DNA of 61,256 nucleotides, counting the filler, from a bacterium (GTDB lineage Bacteria; J088; JAWLBW01), in NCBI GenBank assembly GCA_041690355.1. It is 4 parts of 4 records of this genome, joined end to end, with 100 filler letters (N's around TTAATTAATTAA, not from the genome) between each part and the next. Parts side by side here need not be neighbours in the genome. Positions count along the whole stretch, not along the records: positions 49,883 to 61,256 come from JAWLHK010000038.1; 3 more parts are not named here. One strand, written 5' to 3'. The notes below the pieces were generated by a model. It had not been told where the DNA came from, did not search any database, and saw only the letters and a list, made by a program, of their open reading frames with translations. This document shows, piece after piece, positions 49,905 to 59,836 of the stretch (its first letter is position 1; each line of letters begins with the position of its first letter). The translations under genes were made by a program, and so were the position numbers.

Positions 49905-49981
49905 CGCGGGGTGGAGCAGCCCGGTAGCTCGTCAGGCTCATAACCTGAAGGTCGTAGGTTCAAATCCTACCCCCGCAACCA
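49905..49981 (+). tRNA. tRNA-fMet (CAT)
   Basis: 77 nt, CGCGGGG...CCCCGCAACCA with C1-A72 mismatch, CTCATAA anticodon loop, GTTCAAATC T-loop, encoded CCA. Confidence 0.95.
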
Positions 49982-51560
49982 GCGTTGCCTGCACCCCCGC
50001 CCCACCAGGGCGGGGGTGCCGCTTTTCCGGGCTCCCCAGCGCCAGAAGCGCCGCCCGCGACCCCTCCAGCTCCACCCGCAGCCGCCCGTCCTCGGGCACC
50101 AGGCGGACCCGGTCGATCAGCCCGCGCAGCGCCTCCGCCGCCTCCCGGGCGCGTTCGGGCTCTTGCAGCGCCGCCTGGAGCGCCTCGACGCGCCGGCGGT
50201 AGAGCTCGGAGAGGTTGGGGTGCAGCGTCGGCGTCGGCGGCGGCGCCGCGGCGAGCTCGGCGGCGATCGCCGCCTTGCGCTCCTCCAGCGCGGCGAGCTC
50301 GTCGCGCACGGCCGCCGCCGGCACCCCGTCCTTGAGCGCCTGGATCAGCCGCGCCGTCTCGCGCTCCACCTTCGCCTGCTCCGCCTCCAGCCACGCCCGG
50401 CGCCGGTCGCGCTCGGCGGCCAGGCGGTTCATCTCCCGGGTGAACTCCTCCACGAAGGCCTTCACCGCTTTCGGCTGCATCAGGTGCCGGCGCAGCCCGT
50501 CCAGCACCAGGCCCTCGATGACGTCCTGGCGGATGGTGAGGCGGTTGTCGCAGGTGGCGTTGTTGCGCGCCCGCGAGCAGCCGTAGTGGTGGCGGGAGAT
50601 CTTGGAAAAGCCGCCGCCGCACGCGCCGCAGGTGAGCAGGCCCGAGAGCAGGTGCACCGGCCGCCGCGCCTGCTCCGGTCGGCGCCGGGTGTAACTGCCC
50701 TGGCGCTCCTTGACGCGGGTCCAGAGTTCCTGGGGGATGATGCGCAGCGCGGCCACCTGGCTGCGGATCCACTCCTCGGGGGGATTGGGGCGCGCCTGGC
50801 GCTTGCCGGTGTCCGGGTCCTTGATGAACTTCTGGCGGTTCCACACCACGACGCCGCGGTAGAGTTCGTTGTTGAGGATGCCGGTGCCGCGGCCGCGGTG
50901 GCCGTGGATGGTCGAAGGCGACCACCCCTGTTTGCCGCGCGGCGCTGAAATGCCTTCCCTGTTGAGGTCGGCGGCGATCGCCCGCGGCGAGCGACCGGCG
51001 GCAAATTCCTCGAAAATCCGCCGCACCACCGCCGCCTCGTTCTCGTCGATCACCCGCTCGCCGCGCACCTCGTGGCGGGAGGCGGTGGTGGGCACGACGC
51101 GGTAGCCGTAGCACTTGCCGCCGGCGACACGACCGTTCTCAACCAGCCCACGGTGGCCGCGGCGCACCTTGTCCGCGAGATCCTTGAGGTAGAGGGCGCC
51201 CATGGTGCCCTTGAGCCCGATATGCAGTTCGCTGACCTCGCCCTCGGAGAGCGTGACGATGCGGATGCCGACGAAGGCGAGGCGTTTGAAGACGTGGGCG
51301 ATGTCCTCCTGGTCGCGCGAGATGCGGTCGAGCGATTCCGCCAGCACCAGGTCGAAGGCGTGGGCGCGGGCGTCCTCCATCAGCGCCCGGATTCCCGGTC
51401 GATGGAGATTCGAGCCCGAGGTGGCGTAGTCGCTGTAGGTCTCGGCGATCGTCCAACCCTCCCGCGCGGCGCGCTCGCGGCACAGGCGCAGCTGGTCCTC
51501 GATCGAGGTCTCGCGCTGGCGGTCGGACGAATAGCGCGCATACAGCGCCACCCTGGTCAT
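49938..51560 (-). CDS. Large serine recombinase (resolvase, recombinase and zinc-ribbon domains)
   Basis: YARYSS, ESLDRISR, YGY, ILNNELYRG, LLSGLLTCGACG; C-terminus LVAGVGFEPTTFRL lies antisense in the tRNA. Confidence 0.95.
   Translation of the reverse strand: MTRVALYARYSSDRQRETSIEDQLRLCRERAAREGWTIAETYSDYATSGSNLHRPGIRALMEDARAHAFDLVLAESLDRISRDQEDIAHVFKRLAFVGIRIVTLSEGEVSELHIGLKGTMGALYLKDLADKVRRGHRGLVENGRVAGGKCYGYRVVPTTASRHEVRGERVIDENEAAVVRRIFEEFAAGRSPRAIAADLNREGISAPRGKQGWSPSTIHGHRGRGTGILNNELYRGVVVWNRQKFIKDPDTGKRQARPNPPEEWIRSQVAALRIIPQELWTRVKERQGSYTRRRPEQARRPVHLLSGLLTCGACGGGFSKISRHHYGCSRARNNATCDNRLTIRQDVIEGLVLDGLRRHLMQPKAVKAFVEEFTREMNRLAAERDRRRAWLEAEQAKVERETARLIQALKDGVPAAAVRDELAALEERKAAIAAELAAAPPPTPTLHPNLSELYRRRVEALQAALQEPERAREAAEALRGLIDRVRLVPEDGRLRVELEGSRAALLALGSPEKRHPRPGGAGVQATLVAGVGFEPTTFRL
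49991..50026 (+). terminator. Hairpin downstream of the tRNA
   Basis: GCACCCCCGCCC-CACCA-GGGCGGGGGTGC followed by CGCTTTT. Confidence 0.55.
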
Positions 51561-51736
51561 GGTCCCGGACTCCTCTGCTCGCGCGCCTCCTCGGCCCGCT
51601 CCAGCTCCTCAAGCCACTCCGCCGCCGCCTGGCGCGCCAGCACCCGCGCCAGCTCAAGCACCGCCTCGGGCGGCTCCTCGGGTCGGGTGGGGGCGCCGCC
51701 GCGCGACGGCTTGATGTTGTGCGCGTTCCGGGTCAT
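51557..51736 (-). CDS. 59-aa protein translationally coupled to the recombinase (not in the ORF track)
   Basis: MTRNAHN...AVLELARVLARQAAAEWLEELER; ATGA overlap with the recombinase start. Confidence 0.6.
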   Translation of the reverse strand: MTRNAHNIKPSRGGAPTRPEEPPEAVLELARVLARQAAAEWLEELERAEEAREQRSPGP

Positions 51737-51796
51737 GGCGAGGCTTTTCCCGGATCCGCGCCTGCACGAAAAAGTGCGAAATAATCACAAAACCCC

Positions 51797-52579
51797 TCAC
51801 GAAACCTCCCGGCGCCGTCGGCGTTGGAAATCGAAGCGCCGGCCGAGCACGTTGCGGATGGTTTCCTCCTTGGGCAGATCGTTCTCGCCCGTCGGCAGCC
51901 CCTCTTGCGCCAGCGTCTGGCGCAGCCACGCCCGCAGCCAGCGCGCCTCGCCCATGGCGCTGCCCACGACCTTGCCGGTGCGGACGCGCTCCTCGAATTT
52001 GGCCAGGTAGCGGTCGGCGTATTTGCGCGGGCGCCCCGGGCGTCGCTCCGCCACCGCCACCGCGGCGTCGACGCCGTGCTCGGTCAGGCGCCGGCGCAGC
52101 ACCTCGGGCTCGAGGAAATCGTGGCGCCGGCAGACCTCCCGCAGGTGGCGCAGGGGCAGGATGAGGCGCCCGATCAGTGTCCGACCGGGGGCGGGGTAGT
52201 CCGCCCACGCCACGGCGGTCAGGCTCAGGAACAGCGCGCGGGCGGCGTCGGGGTCGCCGTCCATGCGTCGGGCGAGCGAGCGCGCCGCCGCCGGCAGACC
52301 GTCGCACCAGGTGAGACCGTGCACGATGTCGTGGCGGGTGACCGGCTGGGGCTGCGGCGCCACCTCCCCACCCAGCAGCGGGTGCGCCACCACCGCATGC
52401 GGATGGCAGTCGGGGCCGAGGTCGCCGTCGCAGGCGTAGAATGAGTCCCGCCAGAGCTCGCGCACGAGGGCGTCGCGGAGGACGGCGACCGCGATGCCGC
52501 GACCGCCGTTGTCCCACGCCAGCGCCTTCACGAACGCAGCGAACGCTAAGGGCGAGTCAGACTCCCTGAAGAAGCTCAT
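51797..52579 (-). CDS. Hypothetical protein, possible C-terminal DNA-binding region
   Basis: Start overlaps the upstream stop; RRPGRPRK and LPKEETIRNVL near the C-terminus. Confidence 0.55.
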   Translation of the reverse strand: MSFFRESDSPLAFAAFVKALAWDNGGRGIAVAVLRDALVRELWRDSFYACDGDLGPDCHPHAVVAHPLLGGEVAPQPQPVTRHDIVHGLTWCDGLPAAARSLARRMDGDPDAARALFLSLTAVAWADYPAPGRTLIGRLILPLRHLREVCRRHDFLEPEVLRRRLTEHGVDAAVAVAERRPGRPRKYADRYLAKFEERVRTGKVVGSAMGEARWLRAWLRQTLAQEGLPTGENDLPKEETIRNVLGRRFDFQRRRRREVS

Positions 52580-52926
52580 CACCCGCGATGGTAGGGCGTC
52601 GCCGGCGCCTCGACCAGGGCGCGCCGCACGTTGCGCAGAACCGCCAACACGATGGGCGGGTGGTTCCAGTCGTCCTCGAGCTCCTCCACGGCGAAATCCA
52701 GCGCCGCGAGGGTGTCCTCGGGGCTCGTCGGACGCAGGCGCGCCACGTCCTCCGCCGCCGCGTCCACGGCGCGGTCGAGCCACTCGAGCGTATCGTCGTC
52801 GGGCAGGAGAGTGATGTCGAAGCCGCGCAGGTCCCGGTAGCGCGTGATCGTGCTCGCCATCGACGAGGCGGAAGCGTCGTTGACAGCAGGGTAGGGGGTG
52901 TAGGAAGAGAAATCAGCCTTGCGCAT
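52579..52926 (-). CDS. Hypothetical acidic helical protein
   Basis: GAGGTG RBS before MRKADF; coupled to the next ORF. Confidence 0.5.
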   Translation of the reverse strand: MRKADFSSYTPYPAVNDASASSMASTITRYRDLRGFDITLLPDDDTLEWLDRAVDAAAEDVARLRPTSPEDTLAALDFAVEELEDDWNHPPIVLAVLRNVRRALVEAPATPYHRG

Positions 52927-58990: not shown

Positions 58991-59085
58991 GTCTGCCTCC
59001 TTTGATCTTGATGTCATTGTAGCAAGGGGCGTGGGTGGGTGTCACCGGCCTAAATTACAACCACCGCTTTCCAAAACTCGGAAAG

Positions 59086-59177
59086 CGATTCGGCGCTGTG
59101 GGAAACCGTTACAAGCCTGCGGAAGCGCGTTACTTCGCGCCATGGAATTCCGTTACCTGGTTTTAGATTTTCGATTC
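59086..59177 (+). repeat. Phased hexamer array 2
   Basis: CGATTC 59086, CGTTAC 59107, 59128 and 59151, CGATTC 59172. Confidence 0.75.
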
Positions 59178-59483
59178 CAGGTGGTGGAGTAACGGGGGGA
59201 GTGGTCATCTGCGTGGAGCCGCATTATCCGCCCCCCAACTCTACCTTTGAATATCGGCAGGAATTGCGGATGCGAGCGCCGGGGGTGGGGCAGGCGCAGG
59301 CGGTCGTCGCGATTGACCAGGCGACGGAGGTCTGGCGCAGGCGCGACCGAACTTCGTGGTGAACACGACCTTGACCATGAACGGTCCCCCCCCCGCCCGC
59401 CATCGCGACTGTTGCCGCTATTATAAGCGCCGACGGGCTGGGATGGGGCGGGGCAATGTCTTGTCAGCGCGGCAGCGTGACGG

Positions 59484-59615
59484 CGTCACGCCTCGCCATG
59501 ACGCCGGTTCTCCGCTGTGGGTTTCCGATTCGCGCCTGTGGATCGCCGTTACACGCCGTGGCGAAAGCGTTTCTTGTTCTCCGAAAATCGTTACAGAGGA
59601 CAATAAATCCGATTC
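59484..59615 (+). repeat. Phased hexamer array 3 (exact 21-bp period)
   Basis: CGTCAC 59484, CGGTTC 59505, CGATTC 59526, CGTTAC 59547, CGTTTC 59568, CGTTAC 59589, CGATTC 59610. Confidence 0.8.
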
Positions 59616-59690
59616 ACGATGATGAGCGTAGGGTCGGGGGGCTCCGTGACCAACGAGGGGCTGGATCACCAGCCCCTCGCGCGGCATTCA

Positions 59691-59836
59691 TCAGTGCAGG
59701 CGACGTCCATCATCCGCCGAGACCGCCAGCGCCCGACGCACTGCGGCCTTTAGGCGTCGCGGCGATCCGCCCCTGATGAAGGCGTCAAGCAGCACGCCCT
59801 CCGTCGCCTCGTGCAGCGTCGGCAGGTCGTGCGGGG
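59691..59836 (-). pseudogene. 3' end of an ORF truncated by the IS
   Basis: [23 protein letters not shown]...RRLH*, followed by a perfect 11-bp hairpin at 59654-59679. Confidence 0.4.

Follow-up and report, generated by a model that had tools for sequence, protein, structure and literature searches.

Locus

The window analysed here is a stretch of 61,256 nucleotides (nt) from a bacterium of the GTDB lineage J088; JAWLBW01 (assembly GCA_041690355.1). The element of interest lies in its last part, where the end of a mobile genomic island at a tRNA-Met gene carries a large serine recombinase, a C5 cytosine DNA methyltransferase (methylase) and a quorum-sensing (QS) cassette for signals of the N-acyl-homoserine lactone (AHL) type. 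Because the window consists of four concatenated contigs, separated by N44-TTAATTAATTAA-N44 linkers at 13057-13156, 42310-42409 and 49783-49882, gene adjacency across the linkers is not real. All island genes are on the last contig (49883-61256, 11,374 bp), which starts 22 nt 5' of the tRNA-Met gene and ends 94 nt 3' of an IS3-family insertion sequence. Both ends are assembly breaks, and the compactness of the region and its lack of relaxase, capsid and restriction genes can therefore not be judged from the contig.

The initial annotation had described a tRNA-fMet island with all parts within 10 kb and no capsid, relaxase or restriction genes. Its named parts are real: Pfam, ARAGORN, Rfam and PHROG searches recovered the tRNA-fMet, the large serine recombinase, the C5 methyltransferase, luxR-luxI, a small open reading frame (smORF) and a gene for an XRE-type regulator. 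The tRNA, its junction with the recombinase and the mobile-island end were also borne out, whereas the 10-kb frame and the absences within it reflect the limits of the contig, not of the element. The alternative of a decayed conjugative element, also named in the initial annotation, is subject to the same limit, since the contig stops at the IS3. The contig has three visible units: a backbone operon that includes the recombinase, a divergent methylase, and the QS cassette. Taken as a whole, it is fairly probable that the region is best explained as an island end at tRNA-Met with a methylase and an autonomous AHL cassette, which resembles the CinS and MmaP systems and would act on PraR.

The quorum-sensing cassette

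The cassette and the regulator gene that follows it comprise these features:

55439..55621, minus strand: smORF-a, 60 amino acids, divergent from luxR
55664..55683, unstranded: lux-type inverted repeat CCCCGGCAAATTTACCAGGG, between smORF-a and luxR
55744..56481, plus strand: LuxR-type AHL receptor, about 245 amino acids (Autoind_bind PF03472, 5.3e-33; GerE PF00196, 5.3e-19)
56494..56513, unstranded: lux-type inverted repeat CCCTGGCGTTTTTCCCAGGG, about 100 nt 5' of luxI
56594..57226, plus strand: LuxI-type AHL synthase, 210 amino acids (Autoind_synth PF00765, 1.3e-25)
57223..57405, plus strand: smORF-b, 60 amino acids, its ATG overlapping the luxI stop codon (ATGA)
57408..57446, plus strand: terminator-like hairpin closing the luxI-smORF-b unit (fold energy -29.1 kcal/mol, z = -3.08)
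57527..58003, plus strand: PraR/PhrR-family XRE regulator, 158 amino acids from ATG (HTH_3, 2.6e-13)

The matches to PF03472, PF00196 and PF00765 all exceed the curated cut-offs. The only close LuxR relative found is in locus L001 (LuxR 56% and LuxI 47% identical), which has both smORFs and both lux-type boxes at the same places: the equivalent of the box between smORF-a and luxR is CCCTCGGAGAATTCCCAGGGG, and a look-alike of the box 5' of luxI is at position 6131. The longest luxR open reading frame (ORF) in the window starts at 55624, and the alignment to L001 begins at residue 33 of this long ORF. smORF-a, which was absent from the initial annotation, is a paralogue of smORF-b (BLASTP E = 4e-5), a relationship also seen in the family alignments A1 and A2 described below; homologues in the same position occur in L001 and L007/L020. 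A relaxed lux-type box pattern has three matches in the 61 kb, and lux-type boxes are confined to the QS promoters in the window. The repeat at 56494 could also be the terminator hairpin of luxR (fold energy -26.8 kcal/mol).

The genome that contains L001 (G001; C238, C41, C408, C221) has two luxR-luxI loci, three smORFs of the family and two PraR-like genes, neither with metK within 1.5 kb; the third of these smORF matches is divergent from the second luxR (L007/L020). Scanning metagenomes with the LuxR alignment yielded seven loci, of which one (L209) has LuxI and none has the XRE gene. L209 also contains a sub-threshold smORF-like stretch (E = 0.22).

The cassette is a separate module and, judged by analogy, resembles the alphaproteobacterial cinR-cinI-cinS and mmaR-mmaI-mmaP loci. 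Other luxR-luxI-smORF loci lack the recombinase and the methylase, except for a 24%-identical recombinase match about 4 kb away in L024. From the sequence we infer the binding of LuxR to the boxes and every regulatory output: LuxR bound to AHL would sit on the two CCCTGG-N8-CCAGGG-type boxes and would drive both the luxI-smORF-b unit, giving positive feedback, and the divergent smORF-a.

A family of small proteins

Two profiles were used to explore the small proteins, A1 comprising four of them and A2 comprising 15 sequences. In 400 alphaproteobacterial genomes, A1 found matches in 11 further genomes. Six are directly 3' of luxR-luxI, one is beside a PraR-like gene that has 56% identity with the window XRE gene and lacks luxRI in its vicinity, and three stand alone; one match, inside a MarR-like protein, is false. 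A2 matched 274 clusters (50% identity) at E <= 1e-3 among 1.84 billion representatives, and all 150 clusters among the matches listed are 49-146 amino acids long. Some members of the family lie far from any LuxR (L011, L013 and L016).

The AlphaFold2 model of smORF-b is a helical hairpin with predicted helices at residues 18-34 and 38-59 (predicted local distance difference test score, pLDDT, 84.4). The family has no Pfam model and no sequence match in the PDB, and its clusters are all named hypothetical protein. Foldseek returned no match to the model at E <= 0.001, with generic helical hairpins alone. A word-based homologue search with smORF-b found the query itself alone, and tblastn of smORF-b against plasmids gave two weak matches that we rejected, one antisense within a LysR gene and the other an Arg-rich frame without LuxI nearby. 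A predicted complex of the XRE protein and smORF-b, computed with alignments A4 (see below) and A2, scored 0.02, which we weighed neither for nor against binding.

The family can thus be described as helical-hairpin proteins of about 50-100 amino acids, often encoded directly 3' of luxI and sometimes beside PraR-like genes. As such it suggests a general, testable hypothesis for the way in which many alphaproteobacteria couple AHL sensing to a conserved repressor.

A PraR-family regulator beside the cassette

The XRE gene, whose longest ORF starts at 57443, encodes a regulator of the PraR/PhrR family. The protein is 53-66% identical to 30 relatives in alignment A4 (54% to L021), and over 136 residues, including the C-terminus, it is 51% identical to a Shinella protein encoded in the lnt-X-metK-trmB position. 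PraR has been defined by lnt-praR-metK-trmB synteny (PMC10790750). Among the 80 nearest XRE relatives, for which the best-segment identity is at most 47-66%, metK lies within 4 kb in 47 and trmB in 46. The window XRE gene lies between smORF-b and an unannotated ORF, not at the metK/trmB position, which makes it an accessory or relocated copy of PraR rather than a positional orthologue. Upstream of 21 of the 80 praR-like genes (L034-L113) we found the palindrome CATA-N6-TATG (core GCATAC-N4-GTATGC), which occurs in 0 of 80 control stretches and is a candidate autoregulatory operator.

Two further observations concern the XRE gene and its relatives. Just 5' of its start, at 57463-57486, is a 12-nt tandem repeat, TCCGTTTGCGTC, in 2.1 copies, which has CCGTT in common with the CGTTAC array described below. 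A 55%-identical XRE on Azospirillum argentinense plasmid p7 (L003) lies among small ORFs with RecT and a PD-(D/E)XK nuclease, a region of phage-like look.

Two characterised systems have a comparable layout. In Rhizobium leguminosarum, CinR is the inducer of cinI-cinS, whose product CinS binds to PraR and renders it inactive (PMC4149787; PMC5977203). In Methylobacterium fujisawaense, the gene for the 59-amino-acid MmaP directly follows mmaI and is transcribed together with it, and MmaP was found to co-purify with PraR (PMC10790750). Pairs of a family smORF and a PraR-like gene also occur without luxR or luxI, convergently in L021 (G148, about 8698-9640) and in tandem in L202 (G623, 1031-1671), and a PraR homologue is encoded elsewhere in all five of the other luxRI-smORF genomes tested, adjoining metK in three. 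The CinS/MmaP-like layout, the smORF/PraR pairs and the PraR homologues together lead us to propose a path from LuxR-AHL through the small proteins, acting as anti-repressors, to one or more PraR-family repressors. The two 60-amino-acid proteins would bind and inactivate the PraR-family copy encoded downstream and probably the host's own PraR, and the outcome would be a reset of the PraR regulon at high cell density. We infer the binding by analogy with CinS and MmaP, and on the same analogy the small proteins of the cassette probably switch off the adjacent PraR-family repressor.

The small proteins might instead leave PraR alone and act as LuxR anti-activators in the manner of TraM or QseM, or on other targets in the manner of GinA. 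Both smORFs flank luxR-luxI, and their partner is deduced from linkage. GinA is expressed under the control of GinI/GinR, and its mode of action is described as unknown (PMC8102297); for CinS, at least one target regulator other than PraR has been deduced, and PraR is itself autoregulated (PMC4149787). Against this alternative, smORFs of the family are found next to PraR-like genes in the window, in L021 and in L202, which are three independent contexts. Since a genome has one or two PraR-like genes, such adjacency is, by an informal argument, very unlikely to arise by chance. The family members far from any LuxR also speak against a LuxR antagonist, and we regard the alternative as unlikely. 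Under the preferred reading, in which the small proteins act on PraR-family repressors, sensor, synthase, anti-repressor(s) and PraR copy form a whole branch of QS that would be able to travel as cargo.

The recombinase-tRNA junction

The left part of the contig contains the following features:

49905..49981, plus strand: tRNA-Met(CAT), initiator type (ARAGORN; Rfam tRNA, 64.9 bits)
49991..50023, plus strand: terminator hairpin 3' of the tRNA gene (fold energy -32.2 kcal/mol, z = -4.16, then UUUU)
49938..51560, minus strand: large serine recombinase, 540 amino acids (Pfam Resolvase, Recombinase and Zn_ribbon_recom; PHROG 95 integrase, 1.6e-101)
51557..51736, minus strand: 59-amino-acid ORF (ORF list; GC content at third codon positions, GC3, 0.88), its stop codon overlapping the recombinase start (ATGA)
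51797..52579, minus strand: orfB, 260 amino acids (frame plot), likely ATG at 52579, overlapping the stop codon of the upstream ORF
52579..52926, minus strand: orfA, about 115 amino acids (frame plot; longest reading to 53148), first gene of the operon

The tRNA has the C1/A72 mismatch of initiator tRNAs, as seen by inspection of the sequence. The Resolvase domain match in the recombinase covers positions 1-144 of 145, and the protein contains the motif YARYSSDRQ, which we take to hold the active-site serine. The last 44 nt of the recombinase gene are antisense to the 3' half of the tRNA, and the ORF crosses the tRNA terminator hairpin on the opposite strand; its stop codon, TGA, lies opposite the anticodon loop and is complementary to tRNA bases 34-36. 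The final 14 or so residues of the recombinase are thus encoded by antisense tRNA.

Frame plots and overlapping stop and start codons give the order orfA, orfB, 59-amino-acid ORF, recombinase for the minus-strand operon, and a promoter-like site precedes orfA at 53064-53036. orfB has a weak, sub-threshold HTH_32 match in Pfam, and its Atlas neighbours are all hypothetical proteins. orfA, orfB, the 59-amino-acid ORF and the 100- and 120-amino-acid ORFs at the right end of the contig (see below) have no family match in Pfam, NCBIfam, PHROGs, PADLOC or the Atlas. A role of the 59-amino-acid ORF as a recombination helper is a guess. In the scheme that we propose, the recombinase would have integrated the island at the 3' end of the initiator tRNA-Met gene, with this four-gene operon as the backbone that runs into the tRNA.

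A scan of 185,579 species genomes yielded 80 relatives of the recombinase, most with 45-54% identity over the full length, from records titled Alphaproteobacteria, Acidobacteriota, gammaproteobacteria and betaproteobacteria. In 38 of the 58 relatives scanned, ARAGORN called a tRNA-Met(CAT) that overlaps the 3' end of the recombinase gene from the opposite strand; in several of the remaining loci the contig runs out only a few bases from the match. The best alignment extends to the tRNA-encoded residues 535-540 in 43 of the 80 relatives. Three loci use an elongator-type tRNA-Met. The recombinase-tRNA junction is therefore a conserved island backbone, and a recombinase ORF running antisense through the terminator and half of a tRNA-fMet, conserved across several phyla by record titles, would be a convenient marker of such islands.

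The cargo is variable. Within 8 kb of the recombinase, 0 of the 80 relatives have the LuxR, LuxI, small ORFs or XRE of the window; the same applies to orfA, orfB and the 59- and 120-amino-acid ORFs, and one relative has a weak methylase match. Ten upstream ORFs sampled from six relatives (among them L114, L131, L170, L138 and L148) include defence-type genes, namely a UvrD/PD-(D/E)XK/M78 protein, a multiubiquitin and E1-like pair, and HerA with SIR2; there is also a PNKP ligase, a type IV secretion system coupling protein is present in two relatives' loci, and one of the ten ORFs has no match. A conserved junction combined with variable cargo is the signature of genomic islands, integrative and mobilizable elements, and integrative and conjugative elements (ICEs). 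Serine recombinase islands at the 3' end of tRNA-Met have been reported in Mesorhizobium, with a 14-bp direct repeat 54 kb away (PMC10990125; PMC8627217). These data support the view that the region is the tRNA-proximal end of a mobile genomic island that continues past the end of the contig, so that its other end probably falls outside these 11.4 kb.

Attachment sites (att) were sought in the genomes of five relatives with a 15-mer repeat. In three of them the repeat occurs at the tRNA and once more at a distance of 96 nt, in one it occurs at the tRNA and nowhere else, and in one an additional copy is on a different contig. In L131, L137 and L152 (about 96 nt past the tRNA) and in L145, a longer C-terminal extension of the recombinase contains part of the tRNA 3' end, together with the bases that follow it, for a second time. 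This internal copy may be left over from an earlier integration event, or it may be a duplicated att site. In one of eight long relatives (L121), the tRNA is the last gene of an rrn operon (16S-Ile-Ala-23S-5S-fMet), and it is possible that our contig breaks where it does because tRNA-fMet ends an rrn operon.

Methylase, cis motifs and the question of gating

The methylase and the repeated motifs of the contig are as follows:

53167..53368, unstranded: three GTGAC-N3-GTCAC palindromes (53167, 53205 and 53356) in the divergent region between recombinase operon and methylase
53398..55245, plus strand: C5 cytosine DNA methyltransferase, 615 amino acids from ATG (629 from a GTG at 53356)
58081..59594, plus strand: array of direct GGA-N3-6-CGTTAC repeats in non-coding DNA around the 120-amino-acid ORF
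59477, unstranded: fourth GTGAC-N3-GTCAC palindrome (motif search)

The methylase matches PF00145 (1.7e-28), PHROG 116 (3.4e-57) and the PADLOC models MTase_II and oMTase, and contains FSGVE, PCQ, ENV, QRQR and GNG motifs, which we take to be the catalytic ones. The initial annotation had called it an orphan. It is indeed a C5 enzyme, and none of its neighbours matches a nuclease in Pfam, NCBIfam, PHROG or PADLOC; the lack of a recognisable restriction partner is to be read within the limits of a truncated contig with three unannotated neighbours (orfA, orfB and the 59-amino-acid ORF). Close-relative scans of viral and metagenome contigs found no close relative of the methylase.

The three classes of cis motif named in the initial annotation are statistically real. 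GTGAC-N3-GTCAC occurs four times in the window, all on the island contig, against 0.06 expected (0 of 100 shuffles reach four). It is absent from the QS cassette and from 208 fetched loci (about 2 Mb). GGA-N3-6-CGTTAC has six plus-strand copies at 58081-59540, against a shuffle mean of 0.30 (0 of 300 shuffles reach six), and spacings of 21 and 23 bp separate three of these copies. These direct repeats are most likely the 21-bp phased arrays of the initial annotation. The array was not called by Tandem Repeats Finder and has no counterpart cluster in 2.07 Mb of fetched loci; the plain CGTTAC hexamer shows no enrichment in the window, with 14 copies where 10.85 are expected. The two lux-type repeats make up the third class. 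We propose that the methylase forms a unit with the three palindromes before it as putative operators, between it and the divergent recombinase operon.

It had also been suggested that the QS switch may gate excision or methylation. In a specific form of this idea, the small proteins would, at high cell density, remove the PraR-like repressor of the island from the GTGAC-N3-GTCAC sites and thereby derepress the recombinase operon together with the methylase. Of the four palindromes, three are placed exactly between these two units, and the motif is specific to the element, with 0 copies in the 208 loci. The closest sequence matches of the XRE protein among solved structures are restriction-modification controller proteins (C.BclI, 1.3e-7; C.AhdI, 1.1e-4), and controller proteins bind palindromic boxes beside methylase genes. 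QS-gated excision of an ICE is, moreover, known from ICEMlSymR7A. Against this, the helix-turn-helix region of the XRE is nearly invariant with respect to its chromosomal PraR orthologues (A4), whose upstream palindrome is a different one, and GTGAC-N3-GTCAC is found in none of those 80 PraR loci. As a protein that might bind the palindromes, orfB, with its weak HTH_32 match, is just as good a candidate. The XRE gene itself has no such palindrome upstream, although PraR is reported to be autoregulated (PMC4149787). Finally, the modules do not co-occur elsewhere. We consider derepression by this route quite unlikely.

More generally, a switch that gates excision or methylation is unsupported and, in our view, very unlikely. 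By the co-occurrence check that the initial annotation had itself put forward, the parts do not travel together: QS genes are near 0 of the 80 recombinase relatives, the luxRI-smORF loci lack recombinase and methylase apart from the match in L024, and lux-type boxes are at the QS promoters alone, with the palindromes elsewhere. An ICE gated by QS would have its QS module co-inherited with, and in control of, the excision and transfer genes; no such co-inheritance was found, and the contig has no conjugation genes. The full relay, in which LuxR-AHL would induce two anti-repressors that take PraR off the palindromes, so that recombinase and methylase are expressed in crowds while the host PraR regulon (motility, attachment) is taken over, is likewise very unlikely. 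Were it true, it would make this a QS-gated serine-recombinase island with an anti-repressor mechanism distinct from TraR/QseM/FseA.

Right end of the contig

Three features lie beyond the XRE gene:

58274..58576, plus strand: possible Gly/Ala-rich ORF of 100 amino acids (GC3 0.87), of uncertain gene status
58628..58990, minus strand: 120-amino-acid ORF (GC3 0.87; longest ORF to 59017), likely ATG at 58990 behind the ribosome-binding site AAAGGAGG
59832..61162, plus strand: IS3-family element containing orfA, orfB and a frameshift pseudoknot (ALIL, 119 bits) between 32-nt inverted repeats

The 120-amino-acid ORF is preceded by a promoter-like GTGACA-18-TACAAT at 59045-59016, and about 800 bp of non-coding DNA separate its region from the IS3 element. 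The inverted repeats of the latter are 97% complementary; a clean target-site duplication was looked for and not found. Open frames without a Pfam match flank the element on the minus strand (59691-59831 and 61163-61254), which suggests that the IS3 lies within or next to a gene cut short by the end of the contig. A blastn search of the whole contig against plasmids hit 453 plasmid records, in which the IS3 part alone was matched, and the non-coding stretch 58004-59830 had no plasmid match. The end of the preceding contig carries a HicB-like antitoxin gene (49248-49508; PF15919, 1.8e-12) that has no linkage to the island.

Weighing the interpretation

Several observations weigh against the reading of the region as an island end with an autonomous cassette that acts on PraR. 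The GC content of the island contig is not distinct from that of the rest of the window. Neither a 25-mer of the tRNA 3' end (up to three mismatches) nor a 12-mer (up to one mismatch) has a second copy on the 11.4-kb contig, so the attR that the initial annotation had proposed to look for was not found there, and the boundary and activity of the island are putative. LuxI, LuxR and a family smORF are within 4 kb of 0 of the 80 nearest PraR-like loci; the luxI-smORF-PraR linkage is therefore without precedent in that sample. The chromosomal CATA-N6-TATG palindrome has no match in the window at up to three mismatches. In a family sampled around a Rhizobiaceae-titled genome, A2 has matches in six of 300 genomes, two of which follow luxI (the close relatives of these two are in records titled Aurantimonadaceae and Antarcticirhabdus), and the likeness of the smORFs to CinS and MmaP is one of layout and size.

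The PHROG matches of the recombinase (PHROG 95, 1.6e-101) and the methylase (PHROG 116, 3.4e-57) point the same way, and would fit a contig that is the left arm of a prophage, possibly a degraded one, in which a lysis-lysogeny switch would be built from LuxR/LuxI, the XRE and the small ORFs. The smORF divergent from luxR recalls phage LuxR-smORF modules (bioRxiv 10.1101/2022.09.16.508337), hth/xre-luxR-luxI modules have been reported in prophages, some of them kept in degraded ones (PMC13345283), and the 55%-identical XRE of the Azospirillum plasmid lies in a RecT/PD-(D/E)XK region. The reported order, however, is an xre-luxR-luxI operon, whereas the window XRE is a separate downstream unit, and the small-protein family follows luxI in eight loci in which no phage gene was noticed, with only the window proteins searched for there. 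The sampled relatives of the recombinase carry defence and conjugation genes, and phage structural genes account for 0 of the 10 ORFs scanned; the methylase, too, has no relative in viral contigs in the close-relative scan. We consider a prophage origin highly improbable. The island reading, by contrast, would join two subjects that have so far been studied apart, the serine-recombinase islands at tRNA-Met and the CinS/MmaP-PraR branch of QS.

Comparison with known systems

The Phaeobacter prophage modules of the hth/xre-luxR-luxI type and the phage LuxR/XRE-smORF modules share with the window the combination of LuxR, LuxI and XRE, with a counter-oriented small or helix-turn-helix gene, on an integrated element (PMC13345283; 10.1101/2022.09.16.508337). 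The window differs from these modules in gene order, in having a PraR-family XRE as a separate unit, and in that no phage genes were seen on the contig.

The TraR/TraI/QseM/QseC system of ICEMlSymR7A likewise belongs to an integrated mobile element and combines AHL sensing with a small antagonist protein and a DNA-binding protein of the XRE type. Its QS circuit drives excision and transfer, and its integrase is a tyrosine integrase. In the window, which is likened to it by gene types and not by sequence, no link between QS and recombinase was found and no conjugation genes are visible.

The tRNA-Met islands of Mesorhizobium, such as the C089B-type nickel island, resemble ours in their variable cargo, with sizes up to tens of kb (PMC10990125; PMC8627217), and one recombinase relative (L125) is in a record titled Mesorhizobium. 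They are described as having the 14-bp direct repeat and traACD-type mobilisation genes, neither of which was seen on the truncated contig of the window. Our island carries a methylase and a QS cassette instead.

The cassette itself compares with three systems. GinI/GinR/GinA of Komagataeibacter intermedius, an acetic acid bacterium, also has a gene for a QS-controlled small protein at the locus (PMC8102297). MmaR/MmaI/MmaP of M. fujisawaense DSM5686 has, by its published description, an ORF of 59 amino acids after the synthase, where the window has one of 60; that system is chromosomal, with an unlinked praR and a single small ORF, whereas the window has a PraR copy in cis and two small ORFs on an island. 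CinR/CinI/CinS-PraR of R. leguminosarum bv. viciae shares the luxR-luxI-small ORF order and the PraR-family gene. There, LuxR-type activation of the luxI-small ORF operon is reported to yield an AHL-independent anti-repressor of the XRE/HipB-type PraR (PMC4149787; PMC5977203). The praR gene of that system is at the chromosomal lnt-praR-metK-trmB locus, whereas in the window the PraR-family gene is directly 3' of the small ORF. Compared with the CinS system, the window has in addition a second, paralogous small ORF divergent from luxR, and its cassette is on a mobile island.

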